A program made the translations under genes and the position numbers. DNA of 43,885 nt from a virus (lineage: Duplodnaviria; Caudoviricetes). Below, in pieces: positions 1 to 43,885 of the stretch. The stretch covers positions 1-43,885 of the IMG/VR virus record IMGVR_UViG_3300020138_000049. The stretch is one strand, 5' to 3'. Under the pieces are notes generated by a model, which ran no database searches, had not been told where the DNA came from, and saw nothing but the letters and a program-made list of their open reading frames with translations. Every line of letters starts with the position of its first letter. Position 1 is the stretch's first letter.

Positions 1-310
1 CCATCGGCACCGATCTTGAGGAAATGGGACACGGGTGTTCTCCGTTGGGAAGGGAAGGCCGAAAGGCCGATTACTGACCGGACGCCGCCGGCAACACCGA
101 ACGCACCGCCCGCACGCGGGCTTGGAGGTTCTGGTTGCAGGGGTAGCTGTCGCCGTCGTTGAAATTGACGAGCCACGCGCAGGCCGAAGGGGACTCCGCG
201 TCGACGGTGCTGGACCAATAGCGGCTGGGATCGCACTGGAAAAGGTCGGTGTTGATCGCGGGGTTGAAGCGGGTGTCGTCAACCAACGTCAGCAGCTCTT
301 TGCGAGTGGG
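1..310. repeat. Terminal overlap (circular permutation) with 43577-43885
   Basis: 1-76 and 200-310 are identical to 43577-43652 and 43775-43885; all differences fall inside the DGR variable repeat. Confidence 0.95.
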
Positions 311-562
311 CAGGCGCCAGTCTGTATAGCCGCCCAGGTCGACGGCCTCGGCGACTTTCTTGGCCTCGGCCCACGTCTTGTCGGAGGCGACGGTGGCCGC
401 GGTCCACATGAGGCCGGTGGCGCGGTCGACCACCGTGCCGGCGAGCGCGCCAGCGCCGTCCGTGAGCTGGTCAATCTTTGAGGCGAACGCTTCGGATTGC
501 AGCAGCACGCCAGGCGAGGGCACGTGCAGGTTAAGGGTGCCGATGTGGATGGTGGTGGTCAT
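71..562 (-). CDS. DGR target protein 1, stand-alone DUF1566/Lcl C-terminal (CLec-fold) protein, 163 aa
   Basis: ATG at 562 with AAGGAG RBS and ATGA overlap with the upstream gene; motifs VVDRATGLMW, GYTDWRLPTRKEL, YWSST, RVRAVR; C-terminal VR matches the TR. Confidence 0.92.
   Translation of the reverse strand: MTTTIHIGTLNLHVPSPGVLLQSEAFASKIDQLTDGAGALAGTVVDRATGLMWTAATVASDKTWAEAKKVAEAVDLGGYTDWRLPTRKELLTLVDDTRFNPAINTDLFQCDPSRYWSSTVDAESPSACAWLVNFNDGDSYPCNQNLQARVRAVRSVLPAASGQ
77..199 (-). repeat. DGR variable repeat VR1 (allele a)
   Basis: 123 bp; differs from TR (42535-42657) at 11 TR adenines plus one T->C. Confidence 0.95.
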
Positions 563-13337: not shown

Positions 13338-13382
13338 TGTGCCATCCGTCCGGTAAACGTGGCACAACAAGCCCGCGATTCT
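13338..13382 (+). promoter_or_regulatory. Late promoter motif, copy 1
   Basis: TGTGCCA-tccgtccggtaaacg-TGGCACA, 10 bp, GATTCT, then ATG 6 nt later. Confidence 0.8.
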
Positions 13383-36715: not shown

Positions 36716-36942
36716 CTCCCCAAAATCTCCCCACGAAATCGAGCGACGCAAGACACAGAGCCGTTTTCGGGTTCCCCTCTTGGGCACCAATGCAATAAAA
36801 GCGGATGGATACGCTTGCGACACGAATAGCCCCTGAAGGCGCACGGTTGTGCGGTTTCAGGGGCTATTTCTTTGCCTGCTATTCGACAAATTGCAACGTA
36901 TTGCCCTAGTCTGTTTCCCCACGAATTACGCAGCGTGGGGAG
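36716..36942. other. attP: core TCCCCTCTTGGGCACCA (36773-36789, tRNA-Leu-like 3' end) with arm-type repeats
   Basis: CCA-ended tRNA 3' segment just upstream of the integrase; TCCCCA(C/A)-type repeats at 36716, 36727, 36916 and inverted at 36934. Confidence 0.75.
36825..36873 (+). terminator. Long hairpin terminator after the attP core
   Basis: AATAGCCCCTGAA/TTCAGGGGCTATT 13-bp inverted repeat with inner CGCAC/GTGCG stem and T-rich tail. Confidence 0.75.
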
Positions 36943-36946
36943 TTGG

Positions 36947-37918
36947 ATGGCCAGTATCAGTAGGAGCGGCAAGCGGTGGCGGGCGCAGGTGTTTGTGCGG
37001 GGTGTGCGGTCGTCGAAGATCCACGACACGAAGGCGCAGGCGGCGGCTTGGGCGCTGGAACAGCAGGCGGAGCTGGCGGGCGACAAGTTGCCGGACAAGA
37101 CGTTTGGGCAGGCGCTGGAGCGGTACGCGGCCGAGGTGGCGCCGTTGCACAAGGGTGAGACCTGGGAGCTGCGGCGGCTGACGGCGATGGGGCGGCACAA
37201 GCTGGCCAGCAAACGGTTGGCGGTGATCGTTGGGGCGGATATCGCGGCGTGGCGGGATGAACGGCTGCGATCGGTGGCACCGGCGTCGGTGCTGCGGGAA
37301 ATGAAGTTGATGCGGTCGGTGTTTGAGAGTTGCCGCTGCGACTTCGGCTGGCTGCGGTCAAACCCGATGCAGGATGTGACGCGGCCCACGGCGCCGGCGA
37401 GCCGGAAACGGCGGATCACCGCCGACGAAGTGGAGCGGCTACGGCTAGCGTTTGGCCTGGGCGAGCACCTGGCGGCGGATACGGCCACGCAGCGGGTGGG
37501 CTTGGCGTTTCTGCTGGGGTTGGAAACAGCGATGCGGGCCGGGGAGATGCTGGGCCTTCGTTGGGGCGATGTGGAGCTGGACGCTTGCTATGTTCGCCTG
37601 CCACGCACGAAAAACGGTGATGCGCGCGAGGTGCCGTTGTCGCCGCAGGCGGTGGACATACTACGCGTGCTGCCGGTGGGCGATGGGCCGGTGTTTGGCA
37701 TCGAGGAAAAGTCACGCGATGCGCTGTTCCGAAAGATTCGAGCGCGGGCCGCGCTGACGGACCTGCATTTTCACGACAGCCGGGCGGAGGCGATCTGGCG
37801 GCTGTCGAAGAAGCTGGACGTGTTGCAGTTGGCGCGGGTGATCGGTCACCGCGACCTGAAAAGCTTGATGATCTATTACAACGAAAGCGCGAGCGAGCTG
37901 GCGAAGAGGCTGGTATAA
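36947..37918 (+). CDS. int: Tyrosine recombinase / phage integrase, 323 aa
   Basis: Catalytic set R (ETAMRAGE), K (TKNG), HxxR (FHDSR), H (IGH), Y (MIYYN); GGGAG RBS. Confidence 0.95.
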   Translation: MASISRSGKRWRAQVFVRGVRSSKIHDTKAQAAAWALEQQAELAGDKLPDKTFGQALERYAAEVAPLHKGETWELRRLTAMGRHKLASKRLAVIVGADIAAWRDERLRSVAPASVLREMKLMRSVFESCRCDFGWLRSNPMQDVTRPTAPASRKRRITADEVERLRLAFGLGEHLAADTATQRVGLAFLLGLETAMRAGEMLGLRWGDVELDACYVRLPRTKNGDAREVPLSPQAVDILRVLPVGDGPVFGIEEKSRDALFRKIRARAALTDLHFHDSRAEAIWRLSKKLDVLQLARVIGHRDLKSLMIYYNESASELAKRLV

Positions 37919-38268: not shown

Positions 38269-38523
38269 TTAGGCCGCGCGGGTGGTGCCGCGCCGGTAGT
38301 TTTCTGCCCATTGGTCGACCTCTGATTTCTTCCACGCTTTGACTTTGCCCAGCGGTAGTGCTTTGGGGAAATTCGGTTTGCACGCGATGGTTTCGAGGAA
38401 GGTGCGGCGGGTGATGCCGCCGAGGTACGCGGCGCAGGCGTCGGCGGAAAGCCAGCGGTCACCGGCCACCAGCGCGGCAATGATGGCGACGGCGTCGGGG
38501 CCGGTTGGTTGTTCGGTGTTCAT
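38269..38523 (-). CDS. Excisionase/AlpA-like winged-helix protein, 84 aa
   Basis: WLSADACAAYLG.ITRRTF, FPKA, WKKSEVDQW; ATGA overlap. Confidence 0.78.
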   Translation of the reverse strand: MNTEQPTGPDAVAIIAALVAGDRWLSADACAAYLGGITRRTFLETIACKPNFPKALPLGKVKAWKKSEVDQWAENYRRGTTRAA

Positions 38524-40364
38524 GCGGCGATCCGTTCCGGTTGGTTGACCGGGTCGAGGTTGGCGCGGGCGATGGCGCAGAGAGGCGGCGGGCTGACGCT
38601 GTTGCCGACCATGCGCACGGCGGCGCTGATGGTGAGTGGCTTGCCGCTGGCGGTGCGGTCGATGATGTAGTTGGCGGGGAAGCCCTGGGCGCGGTACAGC
38701 TCGCGCGGCTTGAGCATGCGCAGGCCGATGTCCACGATGACGTAGGGCGTGCCCTTGATCGTGACGGTGACCAGCGCGAGGCGGTCTCGGGTGGTTACCG
38801 TGTCGAGCGATTCGCGCAGGTCGCGCGGGGCGCCGTTGCCGTAGTAGTTGACCAGGAACGCGGCCACGCGCAGCGCGCCAGCTTCGTGCTCGGCGCTGAG
38901 CGTGCACTCAACCACGGCGTGGTGTTCGCCGCCGGCGCTGACGGTGGCCAGCGGGCCAGCCACATCGGCTGCGCTGCTGGTGCCGCGCAGCTTCGCCATA
39001 TGGGCCGTCACCACGCGCTGCTGGCTGCCGGTTCCGGTGATGCTGCTCACCGGCTCGTCGGCTCCACGCGCGCGGGCCGGGTTGCCGTTCTCGCCGCCGC
39101 CGTTGGCTTGCTCGAGGAAGGCGGTGACGACGGCGCAATCGGCTTTCGCAGTGACGGTGTAGCCCGGCTGATTCACCGGGCGTGGTTCGGTGTCGCCGGC
39201 GCGGCCGCCGACGCCCACCAGCAATGCGCTTGCCAGCGCGAACGATCCGCCGCCGGCATGCACAGTGCCCAGCGGCTGTTTCGGATCATGTGCGCCGCTG
39301 CCGCGCCGTTTCGTGGCGCCACTGCCTTCACCATGTGATGCCTGCACCAGCGTCGGCGCCACTACCGCATGCGCTCCGCCCTTCGGCCAGGCGGTGATCA
39401 CGCCGAGCGGTTCGCCGCCGCTCGCGATGCCACTGGCGGAGGCGTTCGCGCACTGCACGATGAACGGCTCCGCTGCGTTCACCACGTAGCGCATCACCCC
39501 GCGCGCGATGCGGCGCTGTGTGGCATCGGCCAGCGGCTTCTTGCGTTCGAAGATCGACGGGCACGGAATGGACCAGTCGATGCAGTCGGCGGCGGTGACG
39601 TAGGGCTGTGCGCGGCCGGGCCCGTGCGTTGGCTCAGGCCAGACGATGGGCTCGCCGTCGCGGCGGGCAATGAGGAACAGGCGCTCGCGGCTGGTGCCGG
39701 CGCCGTAGTCGCAGGCGCGCAGGATGCGCCATTCCACGACGTAGCCCAGCGCGCGCAGGGTAGCGACGAACTGCCGCCAGATGCTGCCGGCGCGCTTCTT
39801 GTCCGGCACCAGGAACTGCTCGCGCAGCGGGGTGTGCTCGCCGGGCGCGGCCACGGTGCCGTCGAGGCGGATCACGCGGCCGGTGGCTTTGTCGCGCTTG
39901 GCGATCAGCGGGCACCAGGTGAGGATCTGGCGGACGTTCTCCAGACTGATGATGCGCGGGGCAAGGCCATGCCGCGCGAGCCGGCCGGCCACCTTGACCA
40001 TCACCCAGCTGAGCGAGCGGGTGGCCCTCGATCGCGGCTGGCCGCCCTTGGCCTGGCTGAAATGTGTGCAGTCCGGGCTGCCGTGGAACCAGCCCACCGG
40101 GCGCCCGGCGACTTCGCGCAGGATGTCCACCGCCCACACGTCGGCTTCCATGTGCCGGGTGAACGGGTGGTTCGCGGCGTGCATGCCGAGCGCGTCGTGG
40201 TCGTGGTTCACGGCCACGTCGGGGTCGCGGCCCAGCGCCTGGCGCAGGGCTTCGCTGGCGCCACCGCCGCCGGCGAAGAAATCCACGACGATTTCGCCGG
40301 GGCGCAGGGCGCTGGCGAGTGTTTTACGCGGAAAGTTGAAGGCACGCTGGTTGCCGTCAGCCAT
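38520..40364 (-). CDS. DNA cytosine-C5 methyltransferase, 614 aa
   Basis: DFFAGGGG, GSPDCTHFS, LENV, RERLF, RML.PREL..AQGFP, GNSV. Confidence 0.93.
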   Translation of the reverse strand: MADGNQRAFNFPRKTLASALRPGEIVVDFFAGGGGASEALRQALGRDPDVAVNHDHDALGMHAANHPFTRHMEADVWAVDILREVAGRPVGWFHGSPDCTHFSQAKGGQPRSRATRSLSWVMVKVAGRLARHGLAPRIISLENVRQILTWCPLIAKRDKATGRVIRLDGTVAAPGEHTPLREQFLVPDKKRAGSIWRQFVATLRALGYVVEWRILRACDYGAGTSRERLFLIARRDGEPIVWPEPTHGPGRAQPYVTAADCIDWSIPCPSIFERKKPLADATQRRIARGVMRYVVNAAEPFIVQCANASASGIASGGEPLGVITAWPKGGAHAVVAPTLVQASHGEGSGATKRRGSGAHDPKQPLGTVHAGGGSFALASALLVGVGGRAGDTEPRPVNQPGYTVTAKADCAVVTAFLEQANGGGENGNPARARGADEPVSSITGTGSQQRVVTAHMAKLRGTSSAADVAGPLATVSAGGEHHAVVECTLSAEHEAGALRVAAFLVNYYGNGAPRDLRESLDTVTTRDRLALVTVTIKGTPYVIVDIGLRMLKPRELYRAQGFPANYIIDRTASGKPLTISAAVRMVGNSVSPPPLCAIARANLDPVNQPERIAA

Positions 40365-40821
40365 GGGTGGCGTCTCCGGTGAGCAGACCCTTTGCTTCGC
40401 ACAGCAAACCGGTCAGAACGCGCACTGTTTCGGCATCGATGTCGATGATGGCGCCGGGGCGGCAGTAGCGATCCATTCGCTGTACAAGATGGGTCGAAAG
40501 GAGCTTGCGGCGGTTGACAAAACGAAGGGCGGAGCGCGCCGCAGAAAGTGCCGCGCGCTCCGCGGTGAATTTATTCGGATCATCGCCATACTCTGAATCC
40601 ATGTCGCACAACGTCGCCAGGTGGTCGCTGACAGGTGCCGGTCGCTGGTTTTCAAGAAATGCCATCAACGCGTCTGTTGCGCGCATCGTGTCGGCGGATT
40701 TCGTCGTGCCAGCGCGGCCGTCTTCCCATACGTGGTGCAGCAGGTTCTCCAGTAGTCCAGTAACCGACTGGCGCGCCTCAGATGGCAGCTTGCGACCCTT
40801 GTAGCGAGTGCCGTTATTCAT
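40357..40821 (-). CDS. Hypothetical protein, 154 aa
   Basis: ATG at 40821 with GGAGG RBS; overlaps neighbours. Confidence 0.62.
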   Translation of the reverse strand: MNNGTRYKGRKLPSEARQSVTGLLENLLHHVWEDGRAGTTKSADTMRATDALMAFLENQRPAPVSDHLATLCDMDSEYGDDPNKFTAERAALSAARSALRFVNRRKLLSTHLVQRMDRYCRPGAIIDIDAETVRVLTGLLCEAKGLLTGDATHG

Positions 40822-41341
40822 GGCTGGTGGCCTCCCCGCAGCCGGCGCCGATCGAACCCGGATCATCGCTGGCAACAAACTTTCTCCATGGCACCCAGCC
40901 GCGCGGGCAGTGAAAACCCCATTCGCGGCAGTTGCGGAAGAAGACGAACAAGGTGAAGTAGCGCTCGGCTGGCAGGATTTCGATGCGGTGAGCGAAGCGG
41001 GCCGAGCGGAAACGGAGCGTGCCAGCTCTCAGCTCGCGGCGGTGGTGCACGCCGCCGGCGGCGATGGTGTGTTCGATGGCGCGGCCCCACAGCCCGATGC
41101 TGAAACTTGCGGCGGGGTGGTCGTGATGGGCGCGGTCGTCGTCACTGCGGCGGAACTCGTGGACGTAGGCGCGGGCCAGGCCAAGCAGGGTGCGAGGCGT
41201 CGGGCGCGGCTCGGTGGCGTGCAGCTTGGAGCCGAACACATACCAGCGGACCAAGTAGGGGTTGTCCCGGCCGCCGACGAAAAAGTCAGGGTTGTGGCGC
41301 ATGGTGCGGCGCGCGATCGCGCGCGCGATGGCGGTGATCAT
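40814..41341 (-). CDS. Cupin-like phage protein, 175 aa
   Basis: YLVRW, H.F.RSD.DR.HHDHP, E, HRIE, WGF motifs; ATGA overlap with the RT stop. Confidence 0.72.
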   Translation of the reverse strand: MITAIARAIARRTMRHNPDFFVGGRDNPYLVRWYVFGSKLHATEPRPTPRTLLGLARAYVHEFRRSDDDRAHHDHPAASFSIGLWGRAIEHTIAAGGVHHRRELRAGTLRFRSARFAHRIEILPAERYFTLFVFFRNCREWGFHCPRGWVPWRKFVASDDPGSIGAGCGEATSHE

Positions 41342-42714
41342 GGGTGGTGAATCCTCACGGTGACGCGCCGGCCTTCCAAGCGGTGATCGAAGCGGCGGCG
41401 GGTGGTGGTCAAAGGGGCTAGCCACGGAAGTCGGGCGTGGAAGGCTTGTTGCAGGCGGTGGCTGTCGGCCTGGCTGAAATGGCCGCGGTAGCTGGCCCAG
41501 ATGCTGCCGAGGTTGCGGAACTCGGCGGGCGTGCAGCGGACACCATGCGGTGTTGCGTGGGCGCGGTGCCAAGAGCGCAGAGCGGTGGCGGCGTGTTTGA
41601 CGACGCGCGCCCTTATGCGGGTGTGCGTGGGGTAGGTGACGTAGCCGAGGAAGTCGATGCCATCGCTCAGCGGGCGCAGACGGATGTCGGATTTCAGTTC
41701 GAGTCGCAGGGTGTCGCGCAGGAAGGTGGTGATCTGTGCCTGCCATTGCTGCAGCTGCTCGCGGCTGTGGTGCACCAGCACGAAATCATCGACGTAGCGC
41801 AGGTAGCGCGGTGCCTTGAGTGTGTGCTTGACGAACTGGTCGAGTGCATCGAGGTAGACGTTGGCAAAGAACTGCGACGACAGGTTGCCTACGGGGAGGC
41901 CGCAACCGGCTGGCGCGTTTTCCAGCCGTTTGTGCGGCGGCACGTGGGCGCGCTCGGCCGCGGTGGAACGGTGCAGTACGCCCTGGCGCTCGACGGAGCG
42001 GCGCAGCAGGGCATGGGCCACGTGCTGGGTGGCGAGCGGCACGCCGTGGCGCTGCATGCGCTGCTTGAGCATGCGGTAGAGCGTGAGGCGGTGGATGGTG
42101 TTGAAGAAGTTGCGGATGTCCAGCTGCAGGTAGAAGCCGCCGCCCTGGCCGCTGTGTACTTGGCGCACGTGCTTGCGCAACGCTGCCACGGCGGCGTGGG
42201 TGCCTTTGCCGCGGCGGTTGGCGTAGCTGTGGTGAATGAAGCTGGGCTCGTAGATGGCCTCCAGTTGTGGCACCAGCCAGTGGTGCACGACGCGGTCGGC
42301 GAAGTCGGGTGCGTGGATCTGGCGAGCCTTGGGCTTGGTGGCGATGAAGCAGGTGGTGGGGCGCGGTTGCCACGTGCCGTCGTTGATCTGCTGTTGGAGA
42401 TCAAGCAGGCCATCGATCCACTGTGATTCGAATTGCAGCTGGTTCTGGCTGGGCACCTTGCGGCGCCGGGCGCGCTGCCATGCGCTGTGGAGGTCACGAA
42501 AGCTGACCTCGCTGTGTGTTGCACCCTGAGACTCACCGGACGCCGCCGGCAACACCGAACGCACCGCCCGCACGCGGGCTTGGTTGTTCTGGTTGTTGAG
42601 GTTGCTGTTGCCGTTGTTGAAATTGACGTTCCACGCGTAGTCCGAAGGGGACTCCGCTATCCCGCGCGCTTGCGACCCGTCCGCGCGGCCCTGGGGTTGG
42701 CGCGGCTTCGTCAT
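41338..42714 (-). CDS. DGR reverse transcriptase, 458 aa (template repeat in frame at the N-terminus)
   Basis: PKARQIHAPDFADRVVHH, GKGTH, LDIRNFF, DGR-type GLPVGNLSSQ, YVDD, IDFLGY; ATG overlaps the avd stop. Confidence 0.96.
   Translation of the reverse strand: MTKPRQPQGRADGSQARGIAESPSDYAWNVNFNNGNSNLNNQNNQARVRAVRSVLPAASGESQGATHSEVSFRDLHSAWQRARRRKVPSQNQLQFESQWIDGLLDLQQQINDGTWQPRPTTCFIATKPKARQIHAPDFADRVVHHWLVPQLEAIYEPSFIHHSYANRRGKGTHAAVAALRKHVRQVHSGQGGGFYLQLDIRNFFNTIHRLTLYRMLKQRMQRHGVPLATQHVAHALLRRSVERQGVLHRSTAAERAHVPPHKRLENAPAGCGLPVGNLSSQFFANVYLDALDQFVKHTLKAPRYLRYVDDFVLVHHSREQLQQWQAQITTFLRDTLRLELKSDIRLRPLSDGIDFLGYVTYPTHTRIRARVVKHAATALRSWHRAHATPHGVRCTPAEFRNLGSIWASYRGHFSQADSHRLQQAFHARLPWLAPLTTTRRRFDHRLEGRRVTVRIHHP
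42535..42657 (-). repeat. DGR template repeat (TR)
   Basis: 123 bp with nine AAC and one AAT codons; nearly all mismatches to the VRs fall at TR adenines. Confidence 0.96.
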
Positions 42715-43145
42715 GGATTGACCCCTGCTGGGGTGGCGCGGGAACTCAGTATCTGGGCACGCTGACCGCCGATGCTGTGGCGGACATTCTGGCCCTTGGG
42801 GTGCTGCTGTTGGCGATGCCACGCGCCGGTTTGCCGGCCGAGCGATGCGGCCGCGCGCGCCAGGCTTTCGAACTGGCCGAAGCTGTTGAAGACACGAAGC
42901 CTGCTGCCGATTTGCAAGCGCAGTTTGAGGCTGTCGACCTCGCGTACCAACTGGGCGATGTGTTGCGCCTGGTGTGCCCTGTCGCGCCATGCTTCATGCG
43001 CGGCGAGTGTGACCCGGTACGCCTGGGCGCGGAGATCCGCACCGTAGGCGTAACGGTGGGCCCGGTTGAATCGTGCTGCTGCGCGCTCGATGTCGAGCAG
43101 CAAGGATTCGGCCAGTTTCACGATGGGCGGGAGGGCGAAGGACAT
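42711..43145 (-). CDS. avd: DGR accessory variability determinant (four-helix bundle), 144 aa
   Basis: F.R.HRY..G.DLR and LGRQTGAW motifs; located between the targets and TR/RT. Confidence 0.9.
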   Translation of the reverse strand: MSFALPPIVKLAESLLLDIERAAARFNRAHRYAYGADLRAQAYRVTLAAHEAWRDRAHQAQHIAQLVREVDSLKLRLQIGSRLRVFNSFGQFESLARAAASLGRQTGAWHRQQQHPKGQNVRHSIGGQRAQILSSRATPAGVNP

Positions 43146-43170
43146 CAGGATAGGTCAGCCGAAAAGCCGA

Positions 43171-43608
43171 TTACTGACCGGACGCCGCCGGCAACACCGA
43201 ACGCACCGCCCGCACGCGGGCAGGGCTGCTCTGGCCGTCGAGGTTGCTGTTGCCGTAGCTGAAATCGACGCCCCACGCGCAGCCCGAAGGGGACTCCGCA
43301 TCCACGGTGCCGGACCAATACCAGTCCGATTTGACAGACGGGAAGGCGTCGGTGTCGATCGCCGGATTGAACTTGCTGCGGTCGGCGAGCAGGAACAGCT
43401 CTTCGACGGTGGGCAGGCGCCAGTCGCTGTAGCCGGCGAGCGACAGCTTGCCGCAGGCTTTGCCGGCGGCAGCAAAGTCCAGGCGCTTGTCGCTGACGTC
43501 GTTTGCCGCCCACATGAGGTTGGTGCGGGTGTCGATCACGGCGGCGTGGTCGGTGGCATCGCTGGCGAGCTGCACGCCATCGGCACCGATCTTGAGGAAA
43601 TGGGACAC
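43171..43608 (-). CDS. DGR target protein 2, stand-alone DUF1566/Lcl C-terminal protein, 145 aa
   Basis: GTG start with GGAGA RBS; VIDTRTNLMW, GYSDWRLPTVEEL, YWSGT, RVRAVR. Confidence 0.92.
   Translation of the reverse strand: MSHFLKIGADGVQLASDATDHAAVIDTRTNLMWAANDVSDKRLDFAAAGKACGKLSLAGYSDWRLPTVEELFLLADRSKFNPAIDTDAFPSVKSDWYWSGTVDAESPSGCAWGVDFSYGNSNLDGQSSPARVRAVRSVLPAASGQ
43177..43299 (-). repeat. DGR variable repeat VR2
   Basis: 123 bp; 14 mismatches to TR, all at TR adenines. Confidence 0.96.
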
Positions 43609-43646
43609 GGGTGTTCTCCGTTGGGAAGGGAAGGCCGAAAGGCCGA

Positions 43647-43885
43647 TTACTGACCGGACGCCGCCGGCAACACCGAACGCACCGCCCGCACGCGGGCTTG
43701 GAAGCTCTGGTGGCCGAGGTCGCTGCGGCGGTGCTGAAATCGACGCCCCACGCGTAGTCCGAAGGGGACTCCGCGTCGACGGTGCTGGACCAATAGCGGC
43801 TGGGATCGCACTGGAAAAGGTCGGTGTTGATCGCGGGGTTGAAGCGGGTGTCGTCAACCAACGTCAGCAGCTCTTTGCGAGTGGG
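43647..43885 (-). pseudogene. Partial second copy of target 1 carrying VR1 allele b (43653-43774; 1-bp deletion frameshift)
   Basis: Flanks identical to the copy at 1-310; 14 substitutions at TR adenines plus loss of one base near the TR GGC codon. Confidence 0.75.

Follow-up and report, generated by a model that had tools for sequence, protein, structure and literature searches.

The window analysed here, that is, the whole stretch of 43,885 nt, is an entire single-contig virus record whose two ends carry almost the same sequence. They disagree within one short segment, which is the first variable repeat (VR1) of a diversity-generating retroelement (DGR), and this raises the question of why a single phage genome was written with two versions of one variable region. 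The first-pass annotation proposed that the assembly had failed to close the circle at a hypervariable bubble and had retained two coexisting haplotypes. We consider it very likely that the overlap holds two DGR-mutated versions of VR1, an intact one (allele A) and one with a 1-nt frameshift (allele B), caught as a k = 127 bubble in the assembly of one circular temperate phage. Allele B is likely the majority version, and A likely amounts to less than a tenth of it.

Layout of the terminal overlap

Alignment of 1-310 with 43577-43885 placed every difference within 127-183 and left the arms 1-126 and 184-310 identical, in agreement with the earlier statement that the two copies match base for base outside the VR. 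Read across the overlap, 126 identical nucleotides are followed by a core of 57 nt (A) or 56 nt (B) and by another 127 identical nucleotides; the flanks of the VR1 core thus agree in 253 of 253 nt. Both ends of the window interrupt genes in mid-frame, and its first 32 nt (1-32) repeat the first part of target gene 2.

Table 1 Features of the DGR locus, the terminal overlap and the integration module.
Feature	Position	Strand	Description
Overlap, start copy	1-310 (310 nt)	.	Assembly edge with intact VR1 allele A
Overlap, end copy	43577-43885 (309 nt)	.	VR1 allele B with 1-nt deletion; runs on into 311 in the circular genome
Inverted repeat GGCC-GAAA-GGCC	57-68	.	Just past the VR1 stop; 4-bp stem; weak candidate recognition hairpin
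Target gene 1	71-562	-	163 aa (allele A); stand-alone Lcl_C (DUF1566), Pfam PF07603 E 4.9e-30
VR1 allele A	73-199	-	11 TR-adenine changes and one T>C
VR1 allele B	43649-43774	-	14 TR-adenine changes; 1-nt deletion near 43729-43730, between TR AAC codons
Target gene 2	43171-43608	-	145 aa; Lcl_C; intact; 53% identical to target 1
VR2	43173-43299	-	14 core changes, each at a TR adenine; free of indels
avd accessory gene	42711-43145	-	144 aa; PHROG 3206 E 3.9e-15; Pfam bAvd E 8e-4, below its cut-off
Template repeat (TR)	42531-42657	-	AAC-rich; inside the RT reading frame
DGR reverse transcriptase (RT)	41338-42714	-	Open frame; VGNLSSQ and YVDD; RVT_1 E 8e-17; PHROG 1423 E 3e-97
Tyrosine integrase	36872-37918	+	PF00589 E 1e-17
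Likely attP core	36773-36789	+	17-nt match to the 3′ end of tRNA-Leu(GAG); rest of the tRNA absent

An avd-type DGR with two short targets

With the circle closed, the minus strand reads target 1 (562-71), target 2 (43608-43171), avd, TR and RT. The differences at TR adenines, an RT with the motifs [IVL]GxxxSQ and YxDD, and the avd gene identify the element as a DGR, [IVL]GxxxSQ being described as the DGR-type RT motif (PMC7826257). Both targets are stand-alone Lcl_C domains with the VR at the C-terminus of a C-type-lectin fold, and they sit in a leftward operon apart from the tail genes. The cassette is an ordinary avd-type DGR with short DUF1566 targets. The RT presumably starts at an ATG at 42714 that overlaps the avd stop. 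The TR lies in the frame opened by this ATG, so that its translation may form the N-terminal part of the RT; a weak Lcl_C match at the TR falls inside an open frame of 424-473 aa in five of five relatives. Beyond the RT, the operon continues with a C-5 cytosine methylase gene and a cysteine-dioxygenase-like gene (38520-41341, minus strand).

As described by Guo 2011 (PMC3240598) and Handa 2021 (PMC7826257), the DGR of the Bordetella phage BPP-1 type shares with this cassette the order target-avd-TR-RT, an AAC-rich TR, the [IVL]GxxxSQ motif and a GAAA-loop inverted repeat after the VR, here VR1. Unlike BPP-1, the window has two tandem small Lcl_C targets in a leftward operon and no tail fibre target, its TR lies within the RT frame, and its hairpin stem has 4 bp. 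The hairpins reported for phage DGRs have a GC-rich stem of 7-10 bp and a GRNA loop and stand after the VR (PMC3240598), so that the sequence at VR1, with its GAAA loop, falls short of a BPP-1-type hairpin. Nor was it significantly more stable than shuffled sequences (z of -0.4 and -0.9). Behind VR2 (43150-43170), the inverted repeat is broken relative to the one after VR1 and does not form the hairpin; VR2 still carries its 14 adenine changes. The IMH/IMH* difference is present, with all VRs ending in TCAG and the TR in TGAG.

Short stand-alone DUF1566 targets like these correspond to category 'd', or CLec2, in Wu et al. 2018 (PMC5758913), the likeness to CLec2 being one of description; two targets per cassette, as found here, occurred in 50 of the 372 DGRs of that survey. 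Close systems include a prophage DGR of Rhodanobacter thiooxydans LCS2 (L081) and four IMG/VR relatives (L001-L004), which have the same cassette and an RT 82-85% identical. In L081, L001, L003 and L004 a single target directly precedes avd, and only L002 has the tandem pair. Several relatives (L002, L009, L038, L055, L056, L079 and L080) have three or four VR targets, some of them 2-4 kb from the cassette.

Both VR1 alleles derive from the template repeat

Compared with the TR, allele A shows 12 substitutions, 11 at TR adenines plus one T>C. Allele B shows 14, all at adenines if the gap is placed at either G of the TR codon GGC; with the gap placed elsewhere, one G>C appears. The 11 and 14 adenine changes counted in the first-pass annotation were thus correct, but it had overlooked the T>C in A as well as the deletion in B, and the peptides that it quoted are correct as far as this deletion, which shifts the frame. 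The adenine bias exceeds chance in both alleles, with hypergeometric P values of 1.3e-4 (A) and 3.3e-7 (B) in the 62-nt core with its 26 adenines, and of 8.8e-8 (A) and 2.1e-11 (B) over the 123-nt TR span. The numbers of changed TR adenines, 11 (A), 14 (B) and 14 (VR2) of 26, are close to the A-to-N change at 51.6% of adenines reported in vitro (PMC7826257).

Most letters of allele A occur in none of TR, VR2 and B, so A is no mosaic of these three. A relative in run X2 carries a distinct VR1 allele that lacks the gap, and it differs from the window at seven listed places within 184-310; since the arms of the overlap are identical throughout, A did not come from such a relative. A search with target 1 in metagenome_contigs, in which five of 197 candidate stretches were confirmed, gave no further alleles of this phage: two of the five are the window's own record (L176, L179) and three are relatives at 43-66%. 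The shared 3′ repeat had no exact match in viral_contigs, a set from which near genomes may be missing.

The circular genome contains one VR1

We compared contig records from four of 19 runs (X1, X2, X3 and X5). Run X1 has every sampled word of the window and is possibly its source, which makes it a second method rather than a second sample. Its Logan contig (42,468 nt, depth 40.5) joins 43885 directly to 311 and has a single VR1, which is allele B. Letters 1-214 of this contig equal window 43672-43885 with no differences and no gaps, and letters 41204-42468 equal window 41300-42564, offsets that are exact only if 43885 joins 311. Aligned with window 1-420, the contig spans 96-420 and crosses 310 with 15 other letters and one gap, as in allele B. 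Three X1 records run across the variable core, one each with the TR, VR2 and allele B. Allele A was carried by none of the six X1 records aligned to 1-420, in contigs of a kind that drops rare variants; A has been seen in one assembly only.

The depth of shared units fits one VR1 per genome. A 45-nt unit with four copies in the window had a depth of 130, or 2.97 times the mean single-copy depth of 43.7, and a 41-nt unit with three copies in the window had 89.5, or 2.05 times that mean; contig depth is not equal to copy number, and these ratios only back up the junction. The relative L002 is colinear across the junction and likewise has one VR1.

A simulated assembly bubble reproduces the ends of the contig

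Six k values were tried in a simulated assembly graph of two circles that differ at VR1. With k = 127, the two edges of the bubble were 311 and 310 nt long, and the A edge plus the B loop came to 43,886 nt; after removal of the first k-mer from the A edge, the length was 43,885 nt and the arms were 126 and 127 nt, exactly as observed. The ends of the window match those of a bubble with a disconnected weak edge, with arms of k-1 and k and a cut edge followed by the loop.

We take the assembler to be metaSPAdes, as in the JGI pipeline, run with k = 127. According to Nurk 2017 (PMC5411777), metaSPAdes disconnects edges with less than 1/10 of the vertex coverage by removing their first or last k-mer, and loss of the first k-mer gives the 126/127 arms and the exact length. 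That rule cuts a weak edge at both ends, whereas the edge in the window was cut at one only, in an assembly for which the program is presumed; a single trimmed first base would likewise give an arm of 126 nt. By this rule the A edge is predicted to have had less than 1/10 of the coverage, so the intact allele is likely rare; the absence of A from the X1 contigs, which drop rare variants, is in line with that prediction. Together, the junction contig, the shared-unit depths, the colinearity of L002 and the simulation support the proposal that the circle was left open at a VR1 bubble. As to the two coexisting haplotypes, both alleles carry the DGR signature and their coexistence is well supported, but the idea of two comparable haplotypes needs amending, as B is frameshifted and A likely makes up only a small share.

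Neither of the two viral relatives checked out of 80 (G001 and G002) has ends of this kind. G002 closes cleanly, and its exact end repeat of 127 nt is in keeping with k = 127; the end of G001 lies in another target with a differing hairpin region, and its first 64 nt show no overlap. Eight viral relatives have a contig end upstream of the RT, three of which end at most 170 nt from a VR, while the start of another lies some 50 nt ahead of its TR (set: L005, L052, L063, L008). DGR repeats may often set contig ends. We found no title or abstract on VR alleles read from mismatched contig ends, in a search with subscription papers outside its reach.

Allele B probably encodes a null protein

The structural model of target 1 (72-sequence alignment, pLDDT 86) had its best Foldseek match in 8q4e (E 1.6e-6), followed by other C-type lectin folds; the C-terminal domain of Lcl is among the folds that the model matches. 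The deletion in allele B shifts target 1 from codon 137 into a frame of 330 aa, which crosses target 2 out of frame and stops at 43147-43145. Gly137 is shared by all 72 aligned targets, and the predicted strands 138-143, 148-150 and 153-155 as well as the conserved Arg154 lie after it; the invariance of Gln163 was set aside because the targets had been chosen by that codon. Allele B would thus lose Gly137 and three predicted C-terminal strands and is probably null. We also considered translational coupling through the B frame, whose TGA overlaps the avd ATG (43147-43143, minus strand). As this geometry occurred in none of 59 non-proximal and three of 73 proximal VRs of relatives, we regard it as a coincidence.

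For a census of related VRs we used 101 loci, namely all 80 viral loci and 21 of 80 genome loci with an RT identity of at least 58%. A TR/VR pair was present in 99 of the 101 and several VRs in 68. Among 171 distinct related VRs, not one frameshift was found within the AAC core, to which the count was confined, as gaps at the alignment edge alone had mimicked frameshifts in nine of the 171; the same code detected the -1 in allele B. Indels of 3 nt occurred in five (one at the alignment edge) and a non-adenine change in seven. The census loci are related to each other and reveal dominant alleles only. A likely dominant null allele is unusual in this DGR family, and because no related VR is frameshifted, B is probably young.

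Similar errors are on record. In Wu et al. 2018 (PMC5758913), non-canonical indels between TR and VR are given for 25 of 372 DGRs, 11 of them frameshifts, and 74% of the non-canonical indels adjoin AAC and are ascribed to RT slippage, which is discussed also in PMC12875486; bioRxiv 2024.11.15.621889 has no passage on frameshifts. The 1-nt deletion amid AAC codons in B and the one non-A substitution in A resemble these cases. Unlike them, as described there, a frameshifted and an intact allele of one VR occur here together, with the frameshift likely in the commoner of the two.

Phage and host

A profile scan, which covered 47 of the 255 listed ORFs or trimmed versions of them, revealed a gpA terminase, a lambda portal, a Clp-capsid gene, a tape measure, a lysozyme and an integrase. 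The gpA terminase, lambda portal and integrase mark a lambdoid temperate phage; since the likely attP has the 3′ end of the tRNA without the whole tRNA, the contig is likely the excised circle. The prophage L081 has a related integrase beside tRNA-Leu(GAG). In 36742-36789 an 11-nt piece of the same tRNA precedes the 17-nt match by 20 nt, with a degenerate spacer between them, as if attP had kept a decayed longer core. Among the matches listed, the closest named RT was that of Rhodanobacter thiooxydans (82% identical), and the host is therefore likely a member of the Rhodanobacteraceae. A conserved element of about 28 nt recurs four times in the late region (at 13339, 20541, 32648 and 34626); it begins with GTGCCA and ends in its inverted arm, and the copies are possibly operator or antiterminator sites.

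Alternative explanations

Fixed terminal repeats occur in other phages, and the contig as written does include both copies, as it would if the overlap were a real direct terminal repeat or a tandem duplication whose VR1 copies mutated independently in one molecule. We regard this as extremely improbable: the X1 contig contains the 43885-311 junction, the depths of the shared units correspond to three and two copies instead of four and three, L002 has one copy, both contig ends fall in mid-gene, the arms match k, and the phage has a lambda gpA-type terminase. An artefact, in which A would be an erroneous or chimeric path or B would owe its deletion to a sequencing error, is also very improbable, if slightly less so. 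Single-base indels are a common type of error, and A is missing from the X1 assembly. Nevertheless, 11 of the 12 changes in A fall on TR adenines, far beyond chance in the core, most of its letters could have been taken from none of TR, VR2 and B, and the deletion in B recurs with another assembler on a 40x contig.

A possible, though doubtful, alternative is standing variation, in which A and B come from two near-identical lineages or lysogens with a VR1 rewritten in the past, and the DGR may have been quiet in the sample. It agrees with the bubble, in which only two alleles are visible, though not with ongoing diversification, and it agrees with the X1 assembly, where VR1, VR2 and TR each form one path, suggesting one dominant allele per VR; the weak hairpin, too, counts toward a quiet DGR. 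Against it stand the intact RT, avd and TR, the probable youth of B given 0 of 171 frameshifted VRs in relatives, and the identity of all 253 flanking bases.

Origin of the two alleles

Under the preferred reading of a bubble between two DGR products, the cassette would act by the established DGR mechanism, with the anatomy described above: TR RNA is copied into adenine-mutagenised cDNA, which replaces VR1 and VR2. A and B would most likely be separate retrohoming products of the same TR. In B, the RT may have slipped by one base between AAC codons during copying. This allele may then have spread by drift or clonal expansion, its defect being tolerable in a non-structural gene with an intact paralogue adjoining it. 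Allele A, the likely minority, could be a repair of B or a remnant, as the sequences give no direction; a new retrohoming event would be expected to put B back in frame. In the assembly, the weak A edge was likely shortened by one k-mer and then written ahead of the whole B circle, 310 + 43,575 = 43,885 nt.

The first-pass annotation saw in the allele pair direct evidence of ongoing diversification. Ongoing diversification is plausible, given an intact cassette and the probable youth of B, but past activity in two lineages would account for the two alleles as well. Population variation at VRs is widespread, with recent activity in 50-75% of DGRs (PMC8144416).

Implications

The case is explained by known biology and assembly behaviour, mostly as first inferred. 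DGRs, population variation at VRs and VR frameshifts are already known, and the gain is modest; particular to this locus are the allele pair and the clue to the allele ratio in the length of the arms. There is also a practical warning, as this complete circular genome was recorded with a mismatched overlap, so that the likely rare intact allele stands as the full gene and the frameshift is hidden.

A more far-reaching idea, which we consider unlikely, is that the frameshift null swept the population because loss of the protein was favoured, and that retrohoming from the intact TR regenerates alleles like A, so that the DGR would not only diversify a non-structural phage lectin but also switch it on and off reversibly. 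Contigs with terminal arms of k-1 and k would then make it possible to search public assemblies for such pairs of minority and majority alleles even where no reads are at hand. The locus shows two products of one DGR side by side in nature, and they suggest that a broken version of a target can come to prevail in a phage population. If the broken allele does dominate, these small Lcl-domain phage proteins would be dispensable at least temporarily, unlike the tail fibres targeted by other DGRs.
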